From: a phage | Reading direction: 5' to 3' (one strand) | Sequence record: PZ386974.1 | Length of the DNA stretch: 64,000 bases | Part shown: positions 1-37,104 of the stretch, one piece after another | Layout: each line of letters opens with the position of its first letter | Position numbering within the stretch: the first letter of the stretch is position 1 | The notes under the pieces: model-generated | What the model saw: the letters and a program-made list of their open reading frames with translations, nothing else | The model's database searches: none | What the model was told of the DNA's origin: nothing | Position numbers and translations under genes: made by a program

Positions 1-1839
<1,839 letters not shown>

Positions 1840-26555: not shown

Positions 26556-26585
26556 ATAGTATCACACATCCATGTGTTTGTAAAC
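26556..26585 (-). promoter_or_regulatory. T4 early-type promoter (GTTTACA-N17-TACTAT)
   Basis: minus-strand GTTTACA, 17-nt spacer, TACTAT, overlapping 3' end of alt. Confidence 0.45.
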
Positions 26586-28672
26586 TATCCTTGGACAAAT
26601 TTAAACGGAACTGATTCTAAATCCATTAAAGATGCTAACAATTTCAATCCTTTAGGAGCACTAGTTTTTTCTACAAATGAAGAGAACGATACTGGCTCAT
26701 CCGATTCGATTTCACCCGTCATAGCAACCACCTCGCCTGTTTCCATGAGAACATCACCATCATAAATGACAGCTTCATCCAACTGGTCCGAGGACATGAC
26801 TTCAGCTTGAATAAATTTAAGGTTGGATTCTAAACCCGCACCAGTGTCAGATGACGCATCTGTAATTTTATTTATTTGCAAGAGAATGCCTCTAGGCAAA
26901 ATAATTTCTTGCTCATTAGGGTGATTACTCAACTGTCCTGGATAAATCACGTTAACTTTATGAGCGCCATCAATAGCCCATCCAACGTTAACACGGATTT
27001 GTTCTGGCGCATGCATAGCTGTTCTTACTTGACTAGGAGAAATAGTAACACCTTCGTCATTATTGTCAATGTTAAGCTCTTTGCGAACTTCTTCAGGAGC
27101 AAGTCCAAGGGCAACGTTCTCTTTAAACCCACCGAAAATAATAGGAGCTAGTGAAGTGGAAACATAGTTTCTGAAGTAGAATACCTTATTTTTAACCATT
27201 GCTTCGTAAATAGGCATTCTGATAGACTGAGCTCTATATAACGTTAGTCCTTCAGGTAAACGGTCTCCATTTAAAAACGCCGAATCAAGACCATCAATAG
27301 CGCGTTTAACTTCATCTTCATCCGCAACATCGTAAAAATCCGGTTTATAACGACCTAACAACATATTATTGATATCTATATATGCAGAAGAGGCATATTC
27401 ACGAATAGCTCGTTTTTCAGCAACAGAGTATTGTTTAGGGTCTCGATTCATTGTTATATTAAAGGTGCCTCTAGCCGATTCTCTGGCATAAGTATACATC
27501 ACATTAGACAAGAACGCTGATTTACGTTGTTTCCAAGTTCTTTCAGATACTTCAGCTAAAACGTCGTCAGGCAGTTGGAAATTATCACGTCTAAAATCTT
27601 CAAACCATTCGTCTTTAATAGAGTCTGCAATTTCATTTGCAGCTTCAACAAAAGCAGCTAATGCTTTAACAGATGTTGTTTTTTCGGTTTTAATTTTCTT
27701 AGCAAACTTTTCTAAAGTCGGCTTAATAACACTACCATAAGAAACTTCATCAGCAAATTTAAAGGATTCATCAATACGATTATAAATCTTATTTTCGATA
27801 TCAGCAACTAAAGTGCCTTTTGCTGTGGACGATGCTTGGGCTAGTACGATTTCATATGCTTCAGGAAGTAATTCGGCCGTAGCTGGGCCACTAACTTCTT
27901 TAGCAGAATTTTCGTATTTCTGGAATAACTCACCTTCTTGTCGGTCAGCTTCTAAAGATTGACTTGCTGCAATAGCACGACGAGAAATTTTAGTACGAGC
28001 AATAACAGGCTTATCTTTACGTTTTTCTTCTACAGCAGCAATAGAACCAGCGATAGCCGTTTCTTTGGTGACCTTTTCGCCAGTCTTTTTACTCACATAA
28101 ACTTCGCCAACATCAGAATCTACTTTCGCGTACAACTCTGTGTTAATGTTAGGGATGCCTTTAATATCTTCAATGTTGGCATTTTTACGAACCATCATCA
28201 CATAGGTGTGTTTACCTGTGAATTGATACATTGCCGACAATACTTTAAAACGACCACCGGTTTTAGTAGAAACTAAACGAGCAAGAAGAGTTTGAAGCTG
28301 TTGTCCACGTCCTTTCAATTTCTTGGTAGGGAATCGGAACAGAACTGCATCCATACGAAGAGCTTTAACCTGTTCATATACTGTATTGAAAATAGTGTTG
28401 ATTGCATCAATAGGAGCAGGACCAAGGCCATTTTTCAATTCAGCTAGATTACCCTTTTCAGACAGACTCATAATAACAACATGAGCGTATTTGTCGCCAA
28501 GTTTAACTTGTTTTACAGCGTCGCCTTCGGAAAGGTAAGAGAATAAACGAACTACAATATTTGTATCGATATCACCAATTTTCCAGACTTGTGGAACTTT
28601 AGCTTTAGGGTTCAAATTGACGACAGGAAGACTGCCTTCAGATTCAAACACTTCATTTAATTGTTCAGACAT
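26585..28672 (-). CDS. alt: Alt ADP-ribosyltransferase (packaged, modifies host RNA polymerase)
   Basis: 695 aa; C-terminal ART signatures (YVSTSLAP STS motif, EQEIILPRG catalytic Glu); T4 synteny next to gene 30. Confidence 0.88.
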   Translation of the reverse strand: MSEQLNEVFESEGSLPVVNLNPKAKVPQVWKIGDIDTNIVVRLFSYLSEGDAVKQVKLGDKYAHVVIMSLSEKGNLAELKNGLGPAPIDAINTIFNTVYEQVKALRMDAVLFRFPTKKLKGRGQQLQTLLARLVSTKTGGRFKVLSAMYQFTGKHTYVMMVRKNANIEDIKGIPNINTELYAKVDSDVGEVYVSKKTGEKVTKETAIAGSIAAVEEKRKDKPVIARTKISRRAIAASQSLEADRQEGELFQKYENSAKEVSGPATAELLPEAYEIVLAQASSTAKGTLVADIENKIYNRIDESFKFADEVSYGSVIKPTLEKFAKKIKTEKTTSVKALAAFVEAANEIADSIKDEWFEDFRRDNFQLPDDVLAEVSERTWKQRKSAFLSNVMYTYARESARGTFNITMNRDPKQYSVAEKRAIREYASSAYIDINNMLLGRYKPDFYDVADEDEVKRAIDGLDSAFLNGDRLPEGLTLYRAQSIRMPIYEAMVKNKVFYFRNYVSTSLAPIIFGGFKENVALGLAPEEVRKELNIDNNDEGVTISPSQVRTAMHAPEQIRVNVGWAIDGAHKVNVIYPGQLSNHPNEQEIILPRGILLQINKITDASSDTGAGLESNLKFIQAEVMSSDQLDEAVIYDGDVLMETGEVVAMTGEIESDEPVSFSSFVEKTSAPKGLKLLASLMDLESVPFKFVQG

Positions 28673-28728: not shown

Positions 28729-28916
28729 TAATCCACAATCGGGAGCAAAGTACGATAAACTTCAAAATTAGGGCCTTTTTCGTACGTATCAAAATTGTCC
28801 ATAAAAATATTATAGGAATCGTTATTAGGAAAATCTAATATAATCTGAGAGCAAGAGGTGGAAACATCTCCACCATCCTTCTTAGCTACAATAACTGTTT
28901 CTAAATAAGCTTTCAT
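28728..28916 (-). CDS. hypothetical protein
   Basis: 62-aa ORF starting at ATG overlapping ligase stop (TAATG). Confidence 0.5.
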   Translation of the reverse strand: MKAYLETVIVAKKDGGDVSTSCSQIILDFPNNDSYNIFMDNFDTYEKGPNFEVYRTLLPIVD

Positions 28917-30409
28917 TATAAACCTGTCTGGGACCACGGTCCAAATACGTCTTCAAACGAATCCGCTTCTGTTTTATCAAAACGGAACCCTTTAATAATT
29001 GGAAGGAAAATACCTACAGTACCTTCACGGCCTTTAGAATGAACCCAACCATTACATTCACAATCAGCGATACGTCCAATTAATTTACCTTCACGAGCTT
29101 CGGTCATTAATCGTTCACGGTCCAAATCATGTCGCTCATCTAAAGGAATAAGAACCTTTACACCGTCAACTGTTTTATGAGTTGTATCTTTAAACCCTGA
29201 ACCACAATCAGTTGTAATACGACGACAACGTGATACGAGTTCGACACCACCTAATTTGTTAGGGTCTTTAGAGTGTTCATAGTATCCTACAACTTCTAAA
29301 GCGATATCAATAACTTCTTTAAATTTAATTAGGTTCTTAGAGCGTTTGTTTTCCCAATATGAATCACGGTTTTTAAGGATAATACCTTCAAGACCTTGGT
29401 CAACATATTTTTTATAAACCACTTTAGCTTCGTCAAGATTACGAACTAACTGATTTTCAATTGGCTCAATTCGTTTAAAGCCTTCAGCCATATTTTCAAG
29501 AGCAGCAAAACGAACATCGTATTTCTGACCTTTAATTTTGCCATCAGAATAGACTTCATCTAAAGGAACATAGTCCCAGGCTTGAAGAACCATACCTTCC
29601 GCTTCTTTAGGAGAAATAGTCCCTTGAAGAGATTTATTTGCTAAACCATTTGAAGTGCTACGGTCTGCAACTTGTACTTCTTCGGATTCTTCATTATCAC
29701 CAAATAAGAACGACAGGTCGTTTCCTGAGCTCACAGCCTTTTTAATATCGAATGAATGATAAACTAATTCACCATCGATTAAAACCCCATTAGGGTGTCT
29801 TTCACGAGCTTCTTTAGTCATTTCCATTAGTTCATCCGCTAATAGAGTAAGACCATGGTATTCGTTACCAGCACGAGAAAAGAATTGAACACCATCATCG
29901 CGAACTTCAGCGAAACAACGAGCACCATCTGCTTTTAATTGGGCAAATGCGGGCCATTTAATATTTTTAGTAATCAATTTCTCATCATATGCAGATGCTA
30001 ACATCTGTGGTTGCAATTGAATAAGTCCAGGCCACACCTTATTCGCGATAGACACTGAAGCACCTACTTCAAGGTCGCGCATCATTACACGACGAAGGAC
30101 TTCTACATCATCAGGTTTACCATCAGCGATATAACCCATGAGCTCTTTAATTGCAGCATTACCAGTGAGTTTACGAGTGGCTAATGTGAACTCAATAAAA
30201 TCCAACATGTCATCTAATTCAAGAAGACCATATGCTTGAGACCTTTCACCCGGTCCTGGCCATTTCTTAATATAATACTGGATACCACGTGCATATGTTA
30301 AACGATACACACGTTCAAGTAATTTGTTGTCCTTATTTTTCTTAAGGATTTCTTGTTTTGTTTTAGTAGAACCGATCGCAGCTATTTGGTTTAAAATATC
30401 TAAAATCAT
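28916..30409 (-). CDS. 30: ATP-dependent DNA ligase gp30
   Basis: 497 aa; N-terminus MILDILNQIAAIGSTKTKQ and active-site KADGAR match T4 DNA ligase. Confidence 0.95.
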   Translation of the reverse strand: MILDILNQIAAIGSTKTKQEILKKNKDNKLLERVYRLTYARGIQYYIKKWPGPGERSQAYGLLELDDMLDFIEFTLATRKLTGNAAIKELMGYIADGKPDDVEVLRRVMMRDLEVGASVSIANKVWPGLIQLQPQMLASAYDEKLITKNIKWPAFAQLKADGARCFAEVRDDGVQFFSRAGNEYHGLTLLADELMEMTKEARERHPNGVLIDGELVYHSFDIKKAVSSGNDLSFLFGDNEESEEVQVADRSTSNGLANKSLQGTISPKEAEGMVLQAWDYVPLDEVYSDGKIKGQKYDVRFAALENMAEGFKRIEPIENQLVRNLDEAKVVYKKYVDQGLEGIILKNRDSYWENKRSKNLIKFKEVIDIALEVVGYYEHSKDPNKLGGVELVSRCRRITTDCGSGFKDTTHKTVDGVKVLIPLDERHDLDRERLMTEAREGKLIGRIADCECNGWVHSKGREGTVGIFLPIIKGFRFDKTEADSFEDVFGPWSQTGL

Positions 30410-30675
30410 TTGATGACCTCGATTTTGGTTACGGTTCTATTATAAGCCACTTCATCTAGAAGCGATTTCAGCGTTTTCTGATAAGTGGTAATCCATTTAC
30501 CGAGTCCTTCAACATAATATTCTGAAATGTAGATGAACCCTTGTTCAACACACTCTTTAAATATTTCTGCGTCTTTTACTGAACGAAACACCGGCCAGTC
30601 TCGAAAGAACATGTTAACATGACCGTAGTCACGCGTTGTGTTTTTGCCATCTGTAATATCATGAACTACAAACAT
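30406..30675 (-). CDS. hypothetical protein (30.1-like)
   Basis: 89-aa ORF, ATGA overlap with gene 30. Confidence 0.6.
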   Translation of the reverse strand: MFVVHDITDGKNTTRDYGHVNMFFRDWPVFRSVKDAEIFKECVEQGFIYISEYYVEGLGKWITTYQKTLKSLLDEVAYNRTVTKIEVIK

Positions 30676-30684
30676 AATTAGCCC

Positions 30685-31500
30685 TTAACAATTTATAGAC
30701 CAAGTCCATTTAGACGAATCTAAAGGAAAGTTTTGAATCGTCCACCATGGCTGCATATCGGTTGGTCCTGGGGTTCGCCAGGTATACGGATTCGACGGAG
30801 CACCAATTTGATTAGGCCATGCGCCTGGACTTGTTGTACCAGATTCTTTAAGCAAATCCGCCAATCGTTTTAAAAGGTCTTCACGATCTGAATCTGAATT
30901 ATGCTCTGGTGGAACCAAACGAGATTCAATATCATCCCACGTGTGTACACGTTGTGCAGTACGAGGAATGGCATCACGTTCACCACGAGCCAACCAATAA
31001 ATCGGTACATTAAGAATTTCTGCTGCATGGTCACAGTGATGAGCTAAATCGTCAACGTAACAAATCACGTTATATTTTGTTTTAGCTAGTTCAAATAATT
31101 GTTCCTTTGAAGAATCATGACCACACATCATTACTTCAGAGAAAGCGCCTGGGAACAAAGCATTCAAATTAAATTGTCTATTCAATCGAGCATCAATTGA
31201 ATCACCTAGCGCCGTCACAGCTACAAAATTATAGTCTTCTTTTAGTTTATTGATAACTCGAAGAGCATCCGAATAAGGCGCTAAGTAACGAATAAAATCA
31301 GAGCTATTATATTTTTCTATTAATTGTTTACCAAGGTTATCGTCGGTATTGAACAGTTTACCAGGAGAAATAAATTTTTCGTCCTGAATCATTTTTAAAA
31401 TATGTTCTAATGGAAGGTTATATTTTTGGGCAAAATAAGGAAGTCCAGATTGCCAGCTTAAACATACACCATCAATATCAGTCAAAATAGTAGGCTTCAT
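30685..31500 (-). CDS. HAD-superfamily phosphatase-like protein (30.2-like)
   Basis: 271 aa; N-terminal DIDGV motif typical of HAD hydrolases. Confidence 0.65.
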   Translation of the reverse strand: MKPTILTDIDGVCLSWQSGLPYFAQKYNLPLEHILKMIQDEKFISPGKLFNTDDNLGKQLIEKYNSSDFIRYLAPYSDALRVINKLKEDYNFVAVTALGDSIDARLNRQFNLNALFPGAFSEVMMCGHDSSKEQLFELAKTKYNVICYVDDLAHHCDHAAEILNVPIYWLARGERDAIPRTAQRVHTWDDIESRLVPPEHNSDSDREDLLKRLADLLKESGTTSPGAWPNQIGAPSNPYTWRTPGPTDMQPWWTIQNFPLDSSKWTWSINC

Positions 31501-31964
31501 AAAGAGTCTCTTAATAGGTTTAACACATCAATAAATTCAGCTTCAGTTAGTATTGTATCATCTTTTGTTAGGTGGCTAGCCATGCTGTGCTTCAAAATTT
31601 TTCCTTTAGAGGCTTGTAAGGCATCACGAAATCCCTTATTTTGGATCGCGGCTTCAAAATATGCATTTGTGTATAATTCTTTCCACGCTTCAGAGTATCT
31701 TGAAAATGGAACTCCTAACCAGAAGAGAGTCCCACGGTCCTGAGCTCTTGCGTAAGACCTTCCAGCTTGCTGTGCAGCCAATCCAGACAACCCAAATATA
31801 CGTCTTTGTTGTTCAACATTTTTCACCTTACATCCTTGGAGAAATCCTTCAAGACCTCCGAATTGAATACCATCCATAACAAAAGGCCATTGAGCAAAGT
31901 TACTTAATGCACATGACGGCCACTTGAAATTACTTCTTATTTCTAATTCAGACATCTTTAACAC
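31497..31964 (-). CDS. NADAR/YbiA (DUF1768)-family protein (30.3-like)
   Basis: 155 aa; FKWPSCALSNFAQWPF...DGIQFGGLEGFLQGCK resembles YbiA/NADAR N-terminal signature. Confidence 0.6.
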   Translation of the reverse strand: MLKMSELEIRSNFKWPSCALSNFAQWPFVMDGIQFGGLEGFLQGCKVKNVEQQRRIFGLSGLAAQQAGRSYARAQDRGTLFWLGVPFSRYSEAWKELYTNAYFEAAIQNKGFRDALQASKGKILKHSMASHLTKDDTILTEAEFIDVLNLLRDSL

Positions 31965-32166
31965 TTATAATTTCAACATCAGCCCAATGGCCGTATCCAG
32001 GTATACGGTCTTCGATAGATAAATTTCCGTCATTTTTAGGCATTTTAATTGACGTAACGTATGGTTCTAAACGGTTTTCTGCATAATATGGAAAAACGTC
32101 TGTTACACGATAAGTAACTTCGATCATTTCCGTACCAAACAATTTCTGGATTAATTTATTCAACAT
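31948..32166 (-). CDS. hypothetical protein (30.x)
   Basis: 72-aa ORF in gene-30 operon. Confidence 0.5.
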   Translation of the reverse strand: MLNKLIQKLFGTEMIEVTYRVTDVFPYYAENRLEPYVTSIKMPKNDGNLSIEDRIPGYGHWADVEIISVKDV

Positions 32167-32353
32167 GTTTCAACCCTTTAATAGGAGATAACTCTTTACC
32201 CATACGTATGTCAGAAGTCCAATCAACCCATTGAACAGCATACGCTTCATTGATAATTCCAGCGGCGGTTTTAAATTCAGGGAGAACTTTAAAAATCACC
32301 CCAGGAATTCCAACACCTTTTAATTGGACTGTTTGTGCTATTAAAAATTTCAT
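32156..32353 (-). CDS. hypothetical protein (30.x)
   Basis: 65-aa ORF; early-type promoter upstream. Confidence 0.5.
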   Translation of the reverse strand: MKFLIAQTVQLKGVGIPGVIFKVLPEFKTAAGIINEAYAVQWVDWTSDIRMGKELSPIKGLKHVE

Positions 32354-32407
32354 ATTTTTCCACTTACTAAAGAAATCATTATACTCTAATCCGTCCTTGG
32401 ATGTAAA

Positions 32408-33022
32408 CTACTTAATGAAATTAATTTCTACCGGATGAACAACAGGTTGAGCAGTGATATATTGAGTAATTGCTTTCATGACTAGAGCTTCAGAACCAGG
32501 ATTTTTCTCAACGAATTCACGTGCTTGGTTATGAGCTTCAAGTTCACTTAGTAAACCACTTCGTTGACATCCACGGTCTTGAGTACCCTGTTCAGATAAA
32601 AAGGCGACGATGTATTTTTCATCGTCATACGGTTTAGACGGTTGAGCAAATGTTCCTTTACTTCCAAAAGGAGAGTTATGACGCCACATCACGCCGTTAG
32701 GAGTTTCAACCTTCGTATATTCGTGTGGGCCATTTTTCTTAGTTTCTTGATGTGGAACTTCATGGACCTTAGGGTTAGGACATTCAATAAAATGCTCATC
32801 TAAATCAGTCGAGAATATTAAAGTAAAACAATTACTAAATTTACCAACACCTGCCTGATAAATTTTACCTTCAGACGTTCTAATTTCACAAACCGAGCCA
32901 GCATCAGTAACTTCTAAAACTTCAAAAGGCTCGATAAGGTCATATGAGAACATGTTTTTAAGGCGTGGAGTAATATCCCCATTTTTAAAATTCATTTTAT
33001 AAAAAGTATTAACTTTAAACAT
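32408..33022 (-). CDS. hypothetical protein (30.x, 204 aa)
   Basis: 204-aa ORF in T4-like codon usage. Confidence 0.6.
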   Translation of the reverse strand: MFKVNTFYKMNFKNGDITPRLKNMFSYDLIEPFEVLEVTDAGSVCEIRTSEGKIYQAGVGKFSNCFTLIFSTDLDEHFIECPNPKVHEVPHQETKKNGPHEYTKVETPNGVMWRHNSPFGSKGTFAQPSKPYDDEKYIVAFLSEQGTQDRGCQRSGLLSELEAHNQAREFVEKNPGSEALVMKAITQYITAQPVVHPVEINFIK

Positions 33023-35541: not shown

Positions 35542-36112
35542 AAAAGTTTCGGATTTGTTCCCAATTCAGAGAACGAAGATTATTACGAGAGTACTGAATT
35601 ACTTCAATACCGGCTTGTTTTAGAATTTCGGCCCAATTTTCAGGAGATCTGTCATATAATTCCGCGTATACAACCTTTTTAATACCTGACTGCGTAATAG
35701 CTTTAGTGCAATCAGGACACGGAGAAAGCGTAGTATATAACGTAGCACCTTCAATAGAATTACCTTTACGAGCTGCAAACAAAATTGCGTTCAGTTCCGC
35801 ATGGATTTCGTTATTAGCAGACCATGCACTATGAGCGGCCCGATGTTCTTTAGCCAAAACAAAATTATCCACCCGTCCAAATGCTGTAGTGCCTTCTTTA
35901 TGCCCAGCAACGATGACCGGGCTTGGTTTATTCTTCAACCAACCGTTTTCGGATGCATGTTCGCAACAGTTTGTACCACCTGAAGGAGAGCCATTATAAC
36001 CTGTAGAAATAATGCGTCCATCCTTTTCAATGACGGCACCAACTTTCCATGAACAACATTTTGATTCTTGAGAAATCAGATATGCAATCTGAAGGTATGT
36101 GCTAGCTTTCAT
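35531..36112 (-). CDS. cd: dCMP deaminase
   Basis: 193 aa; zinc-binding CDA motifs (HAE..., PCPDC); T4 Cd length. Confidence 0.93.
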   Translation of the reverse strand: MKASTYLQIAYLISQESKCCSWKVGAVIEKDGRIISTGYNGSPSGGTNCCEHASENGWLKNKPSPVIVAGHKEGTTAFGRVDNFVLAKEHRAAHSAWSANNEIHAELNAILFAARKGNSIEGATLYTTLSPCPDCTKAITQSGIKKVVYAELYDRSPENWAEILKQAGIEVIQYSRNNLRSLNWEQIRNFCGE

Positions 36113-37104
36113 TATTGAACCTTATTAATATAAGTTAACAGCTCTTTAGTTTGTTCCCAACTGATGCACGCATCGGTAACGGAAACGCCATAGGACATAT
36201 TATCAGAAATTTTTTGATTTCCTTCATGTAGGAATGATTCTATCATAATTCCTTTGACCAAATCATTAGCTGCTAAATTTTTACCAATACCAATTTGATT
36301 GCTATAATGCCCATCAGCGTTTGCATGGCTACAGTCAACCATTACATAATGATTCAGACCTACTGCCCTTGCTTTGTTAGAAGCTTCTTGAATATCAGAA
36401 GAATGATAGTTCGGGCCGTTGGTCCCACCACGCAATACGATATGCGTATTCTGATTACCTTCAGCTTCAACAATGCCTACAGTACCATCGACGTCCATAC
36501 CCATATACCGATGAGGCCAGGCGGCACTATACATCGCGTCTGTAGCTACTTTAATAGAACCATTGGTTGCGTTCTTGAAGCCTACGCACATCGGTAGACC
36601 TGAAGCAATTTCACGATGTGTCTGACTTTCAGTCGTACGGGCGCCAATAGCAACCCATGAGAAAATACCAGAAAGATACTTAATCGTGAATGGGTCTAAT
36701 ACTTCAGTTGCTAATGGAAGTCCCATACGTAGAAGTTTACGACACAATGTTCGTGCAACTATAAGACCGTGGTTCATATCAAAACTTCCGTCAAGATATG
36801 GATCATTTACAAGACCTTTCCAACCTACGGTAGTTCGAGGCTTTTCAAAATAAACGCGCATCACTAACAGAACATTAGGAAGACGAGTTTGAAGTTCGGC
36901 CAGACGTTTGCCGTATTCAACAGCAGCAATAGGGTCATGAATTGAACAAGGACCTACAACAATAAGTTTGCGTGGGTCTTCACCGTTCATAATCGAATTA
37001 ACTTGTTCGCGATGAGAAGCCACTTGTGATGCGTAAGCTTCCGACAAAGGAATAATCTCAGCCAGTTCTTTTGGAGAAATAAGTTTTCCGACGACAGGTA
37101 ACAT
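36112..37104 (-). CDS. class I 3-deoxy-D-arabino-heptulosonate-7-phosphate (DAHP) synthase
   Basis: 330 aa; full-length similarity by recall to E. coli AroG/AroF/AroH incl. VVGPCSIHD, KPRTTVGWKGL, IGARTTESQ, DCSHAN, ESFLHEGNQ, TDACISW; stop overlaps cd start (TAATG). Confidence 0.9.
   Translation of the reverse strand: MLPVVGKLISPKELAEIIPLSEAYASQVASHREQVNSIMNGEDPRKLIVVGPCSIHDPIAAVEYGKRLAELQTRLPNVLLVMRVYFEKPRTTVGWKGLVNDPYLDGSFDMNHGLIVARTLCRKLLRMGLPLATEVLDPFTIKYLSGIFSWVAIGARTTESQTHREIASGLPMCVGFKNATNGSIKVATDAMYSAAWPHRYMGMDVDGTVGIVEAEGNQNTHIVLRGGTNGPNYHSSDIQEASNKARAVGLNHYVMVDCSHANADGHYSNQIGIGKNLAANDLVKGIMIESFLHEGNQKISDNMSYGVSVTDACISWEQTKELLTYINKVQ

Follow-up and report, generated by a model that had tools for sequence, protein, structure and literature searches.

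A probable AdfN-type NADAR DNA ADP-ribosylglycohydrolase encoded by gene 30.3 of an RB69-like phage

A minus-strand gene in the window, that is, the whole stretch of 64,000 nucleotides of phage record PZ386974.1 that was analysed, very probably encodes AdfN (gp30.3), a free-standing NADAR DNA ADP-ribosylglycohydrolase which would act early in infection and defeat the DarTG1 system of the host. In the proposed mechanism, AdfN would be an early product of infection. In a host with DarTG1, infection would release DarT1, which would ADP-ribosylate guanine bases of the phage DNA and block replication. AdfN would then hydrolyse the N-glycosidic linkage of ADP-ribose to guanine by means of E36, K43 and the phage-type H123, and with the normal template restored the phage would replicate. 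What the enzyme is, how it works and how it counters the defence are already known from work published between 2023 and 2025, and nothing conceptually new is proposed here. For the allele in the window, computation established its orthology, its fold, its catalytic residues, an unbroken reading frame and purifying selection, and the coordinates are collected in Table 1.

Identity and reading frame of gene 30.3

The window protein matched the Pfam family PF08010 (Phage_30_3, "Bacteriophage protein GP30.3") with an E-value of 1.9e-69 and 232 bits against a curated cut-off of 36 bits, and the match spanned profile positions 1-138 of 138. A total of 107 database homologues were found. Over the full length, 147 of the 152 residues (97%) were shared with T4 gp30.3 (NP_049816), and 133 of 137 residues were identical over the part retained in the truncated RB69 gp30.3 (NP_861905). 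The DNA of the window allele and the T4 allele differed at 49 of 459 positions (about 11%), including 39 synonymous and 10 non-synonymous changes, and the resulting dN/dS was 0.05, a sign of strong purifying selection on the frame. The substitutions were, in window-to-T4 order, K11R, E89P, I120V, M125I and H128G, and none of the five fell at an invariant column of the family alignment described below. Over the surrounding 2-kb stretch (30400..32400), identity was 99.2% with Escherichia phage AV110 and 98.4% with SA79RD, two phages classified in the Tevenvirinae, genus Mosigvirus, to which RB69 belongs. Judged by its sequence, the gene is 30.3 and comes from a T4-type phage belonging to Mosigvirus.

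The first-pass annotation had described a 155-aa ORF at 31497-31964 with the motifs of a YbiA-like protein. This ORF was present on the minus strand and, read from a GTG codon, carried W-P-S-C-A-L-S-N-F and DGIQFGGLEGFLQGCK. The frame was thus retained, but the GTG start at 31964 was discarded, and translation most likely begins three codons further on, with the ATG at 31955, which gives a product of 152 aa. The ATG was preferred since T4 and RB69 share it, while T4 has GCA at the position of the GTG; since it makes an 8-nt overlap with the stop of the 30.4 homologue upstream (ATGTCTGA); and since the published T4 numbering (E36, K43) is reproduced from it. At the other end of the gene, the stop codon overlaps the ATG of gene 30.2 (ATGA). 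Overlaps or gaps of less than 10 nt were found throughout 30.5-30.4-30.3-30.2-30.1-ligase-alt.1, and the gene order, continued to alt, was the same as in T4 and also matched the RB69 record. Just upstream of 30.5, the best promoter-like site of the region was located, and a promoter is annotated at the same site in the record of the near-identical phage SA79RD. The total number of promoter-like sites in the region was not above that of shuffled controls, and this promoter is therefore suggestive only.

Two other ORFs of this region were inspected. In T4, an internal out-of-frame ORF 30.3' of 75 aa sits inside gene 30.3, and it is open in T4 and 12 related viral loci. The equivalent frame in the window was not open and met a stop at codon 35, which argues against 30.3' as a conserved gene. 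The place of T4 30.6 (95 aa) is occupied in the window by a 204-aa ORF, for which no Pfam match was obtained at E ≤ 1; a near-identical gene in SA79RD is annotated as hypothetical.

In most database records gp30.3 is labelled "hypothetical protein", and in several GenBank records, such as the Escherichia phage AV110 CDS at 1298..1627 of locus L091 and the phage SV76 protein, it is given as 109 aa from an internal start. A truncated gp30.3 in AV110, the best database match, was considered and rejected: only 4 of 494 aligned bases of the AV110 DNA differed from the window and the full 152-codon frame was intact, so the 109-aa CDS reflects a choice of start codon in annotation and not a truncation. 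A protein-level search of such 109-aa records would miss the catalytic E36 and K43.

Table 1. Coordinates of adfN, its catalytic codons and surrounding features in the window
Feature	Position	Strand	Remark
adfN (gene 30.3) CDS	31497..31955	-	152 aa, ATG start (most likely), TGA stop, single NADAR domain
Glu36 codon (GAA)	31848..31850	-	predicted catalytic Glu contacting the distal ribose of ADP-ribose; aligns with E of YbiA SEHYFQAQK
Lys43 codon (AAG)	31827..31829	-	conserved, predicted catalytic Lys; aligns with K of YbiA
His123 codon (CAC)	31587..31589	-	last-strand residue; invariant, directly after predicted strand 120-122
C-terminal alpha-helix, residues 138-151	31503..31544	-	seen in the model; lost in the RB69 allele
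Equivalent of T4 ORF 30.3'	31592..31819	-	
Gene 30.2	30685..31500	-	predicted HAD-fold hydrolase with disordered C-terminal tail; neighbour context, not shown to be part of the system
Candidate early sigma-70-type promoter	32378..32407	-	TTTACA-18-TATAAT, 11/12, just upstream of 30.5
204-aa ORF in the place of T4 30.6	32408..33022	-	
DNA ligase	28916..30409	-	PF01068
Alt ADP-ribosyltransferase	26585..28672	-	PF03496, E = 1.7e-27
Class I DAHP synthase, aroF-like	36112..37104	-	330 aa; PF00793, E = 5e-75

NADAR fold, active site and activity

When the window protein was searched alone, no match to PF08719 (NADAR) was obtained at E ≤ 1, no match in the PDB by phmmer even at E ≤ 10, and no match in NCBIfam, and the PHROGs match was phrog_652, described only as "unknown function". 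The NADAR homology was therefore reached through the family profile and the structure. A family alignment of 57 sequences, down to 35% identity, was converted to a profile and compared with the PDB, and E. coli YbiA (2b3w) was the sole match (E = 0.0033), in which LSNF...EGFLQslK was aligned with FSNF...SEHYFQAQK. In addition, 23 of 56 family members matched PF08719 individually, with a best E-value of 1.5e-7. The window protein itself goes unmatched because Pfam splits the superfamily and files the phage clade as PF08010, and not because homology is lacking.

The residues P13, A16, L17, S18, N19, F20, F25, E36, G37, F38, Q40, K43, Q50, G58, A61, G65, A112, H123, T134, L136 and T137 were invariant in all 57 sequences. 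Among them, LSNF at positions 17-20 followed by E36 and K43 reproduces the NADAR motif E-x-[FY]-x-Q-x-x-K after SNF. An AlphaFold2 model of the window protein, built with the family alignment, reached a pLDDT of 93.3 and a pTM of 0.87, and the predicted structure showed the alpha+beta fold of NADAR proteins. Fold searches with this model returned NADAR structures only, with YbiA among the top matches. The NADAR/YbiA-like assignment of the first-pass annotation was thus upheld by the profile match to YbiA, by the PF08719 matches of the relatives and by the match of the model to NADAR structures. Of the checks it had proposed, the direct search against PF08719, whose failure it had named as a refutation, was negative at E ≤ 1, but this outcome is misleading given the Pfam split, and the NADAR link came from the 23 of 56 relatives, the YbiA profile match and the fold search; the structure prediction and active-site comparison gave the expected outcome, with NADAR-only fold matches and with E36 and K43 invariant.

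The residue on the last strand is Glu in NADARs of the YbiA type, Asp in those linked to DarT1 and His in phage NADARs (PMC11125620, PMC11543638), and the phage-type His was present at this position of the window protein (H123). E. coli YbiA (2b3w) and the Phytophthora NADAR (8bau), both of PF08719, shared 18-21% identity with the window protein and differ from it by Glu in place of this His. The DarG1 or DarT1-associated NADARs (G. lovleyi, PDB 8bat; E. coli C7) shared about 13% identity with it, and DarG1 has an N-terminal extension and a last-strand Asp, whereas the phage protein has His. In the published phylogeny, the gp30.3 clade is closest to the DarT1-linked NADARs.

The activity itself was described for the T4 protein. 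Gene 30.3 of T4 was renamed adfN (anti-DarT factor NADAR) by Johannesman et al. (Nat Commun 2025, PMC11825919), in whose work an AlphaFold model of T4 AdfN also resembled NADAR structures. Purified T4 AdfN stripped ADP-ribose from DarT1-modified DNA and the E36A variant did not; E36A lost activity and K43A was impaired (PMC11825919). Hydrolysis of guanosine-ADPr by T4 gp30.3 was found independently in vitro (PMC11125620), and the published specificity is for guanine adducts (DarT1), not for thymine adducts (DarT2). T4 and T2 without adfN were unable to plaque on DarTG1 cells, and DarTG2 was not countered by adfN (PMC11825919). For T4 adfN, the published work established necessity as well as sufficiency for DarTG1 resistance in T-even infection. 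The first-pass suggestions that the protein is an ADP-ribosyl hydrolase acting on DNA bases and that it serves against DarT-like toxins accordingly agree with what was demonstrated, the former for the 97%-identical T4 gp30.3 (PMC11825919, PMC11125620) and the latter, as DarTG1 counter-defence, for T4 and T2 adfN (PMC11825919).

YbiA was both the closest PDB sequence match and a top structural match, and some divergent relatives of gp30.3 have NUDIX, Thg1 or PRPP-synthetase-like genes nearby. YbiA serves a housekeeping function in riboflavin metabolism. These points would fit a metabolic N-glycosidase or a scavenger of small ADPr molecules (riboflavin intermediates, or cADPR-type immune signals and by-products) that acts on these instead of DNA adducts. 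We consider this reading improbable, since the gp30.3 clade has His at the position of the defining Glu of YbiA and lies nearest the DarT1-linked NADARs in the published phylogeny, and since DNA de-ADP-ribosylation and the DarTG1 phenotype are direct observations which explain the data with no need of another role. A side activity on small molecules besides the activity on DNA is possible.

Genomic neighbourhood

The adjacent gene, 30.2, had been called a HAD-type phosphatase in the first pass, and its fold was confirmed. In the family alignment of gp30.2, D8, D10, K132, D150 and D151 were invariant and T96 nearly so, which corresponds to the four HAD motifs. The Pfam HAD_2 match (E = 0.013, 16 bits) was below the cut-off of 23.8 bits; gp30.2 belongs to no Pfam family and is "hypothetical" in most records. 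In the model of gp30.2, most of residues 1-190 had a pLDDT above 90, and the tail was disordered. A Foldseek search of the model against the PDB gave 97 matches at E ≤ 0.001, and the best 50 of the 97 were hydrolases of the HAD superfamily, including two designed esterases, with the cytosolic and mitochondrial 5'(3')-deoxyribonucleotidases at the top (E = 5e-8). A single weak match, again to a 5'(3')-deoxyribonucleotidase, was obtained with the family profile against the PDB. A HAD-type hydrolase was thus supported at fold level, whereas a phosphatase activity and its substrate are putative. The tail of about 70 aa is rich in Trp, Pro and Asn and could not be aligned with T4, and the overall identity of gp30.2 to the T4 protein was 70%.

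A functional cluster of Alt, the HAD-type protein and the NADAR protein had also been proposed. The positions of its members were correct, with the ligase and Alt genes on the same strand as adfN and Alt about 2.8 kb downstream, but a functional module was not borne out by comparison with other phages, and in the published genetics 30.3 alone was required and no neighbouring gene had to be transferred (PMC11825919). Seven window proteins were searched by tblastn against 80 viral loci containing a gp30.3 relative, with 6-kb flanks. Within 6 kb of the gp30.3 relative, 30.2 was found in 21 of the 80 loci, ligase in 20 and Alt in 15, and these loci were essentially genomes of T4-type synteny. In the majority of divergent relatives, none of 30.2, ligase and Alt was within 6 kb of the NADAR gene, and divergent relatives on large contigs had unrelated neighbours. 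Likewise, when the neighbours on the contigs of three divergent homologues were compared with gp30.2, a 30.2 homologue was found at the T4-like locus only. When the flanking ORFs of these 80 loci and of L002-L009 (88 loci together) were clustered, no family of neighbours was shared by more than 23 loci, and the families at that level were T4 core-synteny genes. An apparent neighbour family of 22 loci was an antisense ORF inside 30.3 itself and was rejected. Across phages, 30.2 lies directly upstream of the ligase gene (with 30.1 between them in close relatives), even where it is apart from 30.3. The fact that 30.2 stays with ligase when 30.3 is elsewhere hints at a role connected with ligase or DNA ends rather than with AdfN.

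Other neighbours were observed beside divergent gp30.3-type NADAR genes. On metagenomic contigs of the 300-kb class (L002..L004, 9115..11294), NUDIX and Thg1-like genes were located within a few kb, and on a very large phage-like contig (L005, 1..22), PRPP-synthetase-like and GGDEF-domain genes were located within a few kb. There are hints that the His-type NADAR clade also occurs in other NAD/ADP-ribose or RNA-repair contexts.

The published work on T4 leaves room for a partner of AdfN. Uninfected E. coli gained no protection against DarT1 from T4 AdfN, which rescued non-T-even phages only weakly, so the picture of AdfN acting alone is incomplete, and an additional T-even factor was postulated for its full activity. 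The translationally coupled neighbour gp30.2 might be that factor, in which case it might, for instance, bring AdfN to DNA under replication, or act on the freed ADP-ribose or on the site of damage. The adjacency of the two genes in T4-type phages, with their ATGA overlap, and the fact that uninfected E. coli has no such partner would agree with this proposal, but 30.2 tracks ligase and not 30.3 across divergent phages. We regard the proposal as very unlikely to be correct.

The position of Alt about 2.8 kb away on the same strand could instead point to a writer-eraser pair, in which AdfN would mainly reverse or tune the ADP-ribosylation of host proteins or RNA by the phage's own Alt, ModA and ModB. 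Proximity and co-expression are the one basis for this idea, and it seems very unlikely: the tested NADARs, including T4 gp30.3, act on guanine-ADPr DNA, the phenotype of adfN deletion in T4 and T2 is accounted for by DarTG1 alone, Alt was within 6 kb in only 15 of the 80 loci, all of T4-type synteny, and hydrolysis of arginine-ADPr by any NADAR was not found in the examined literature on NADARs.

Elsewhere in the window, a gene for a class I DAHP synthase lies directly upstream of the dCMP deaminase gene, where T4 has the small ORFs cd.1 and cd.2. Class I DAHP synthase is the first enzyme of aromatic amino-acid synthesis. About 140 phage records, most of them from Escherichia and Shigella phages, contain the gene with at least 95% identity and annotate it as aroF, and by its sequence it is an auxiliary metabolic gene.

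Comparison with T4 and RB69 and meaning for the phage

The AdfN assignment was examined against the alleles of the two reference phages. The window protein shares its genomic position, E36, K43, H123 and the C-terminal helix with T4 AdfN, from which it is distinguished by five substitutions and by its genus, since the T4 gene belongs to Tequatrovirus and the window gene to Mosigvirus. RB69, of the same genus as the window phage, is sensitive to DarTG1 (PMC11825919). In recombinants between RB69 and the resistant T2 and T4, the 3' part of 30.3 was always acquired (PMC11825919). The RB69 allele has a T insertion at nt 411, by which the protein is shortened by 15 residues and loses its terminal helix; such C-terminal truncation lowers the activity of AdfN, the helix being needed for full activity, and RB69 was fully rescued by ectopic adfN(T4) (PMC11825919). 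In a three-way DNA alignment, the extra T was absent from the window, whose allele is full length. A decaying or non-functional copy, as the frameshifted allele of RB69 in the same genus and the 109-aa version in some database records might suggest, has next to no chance of being the right description, because the window has the 152-codon frame without the T insertion, every invariant residue and a dN/dS of 0.05, and because the 109-aa AV110 annotation is a start-codon choice on intact DNA.

AdfN also differs from an antitoxin in its setting. The DarG1 gene adjoins that of DarT1, and its product shields uninfected cells, whereas T4 AdfN is an orphan and gives no such protection. No DarT1 toxin adjoins adfN in the window: the neighbours are 30.4 and 30.2, and the sole nearby ADP-ribosyltransferase is Alt, of the exoenzyme type (PF03496). 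The window adfN is therefore an orphan antitoxin-like gene and not a member of a toxin-antitoxin system.

By analogy, the window allele and its phage would be expected to behave like T4 AdfN and T4. The main value of these results is the correct annotation of a gene that is mostly recorded as "hypothetical protein". This RB69-like phage, unlike RB69, is predicted to resist hosts carrying DarTG1, and such predicted resistance would be useful for the choice of therapeutic or typing phages.
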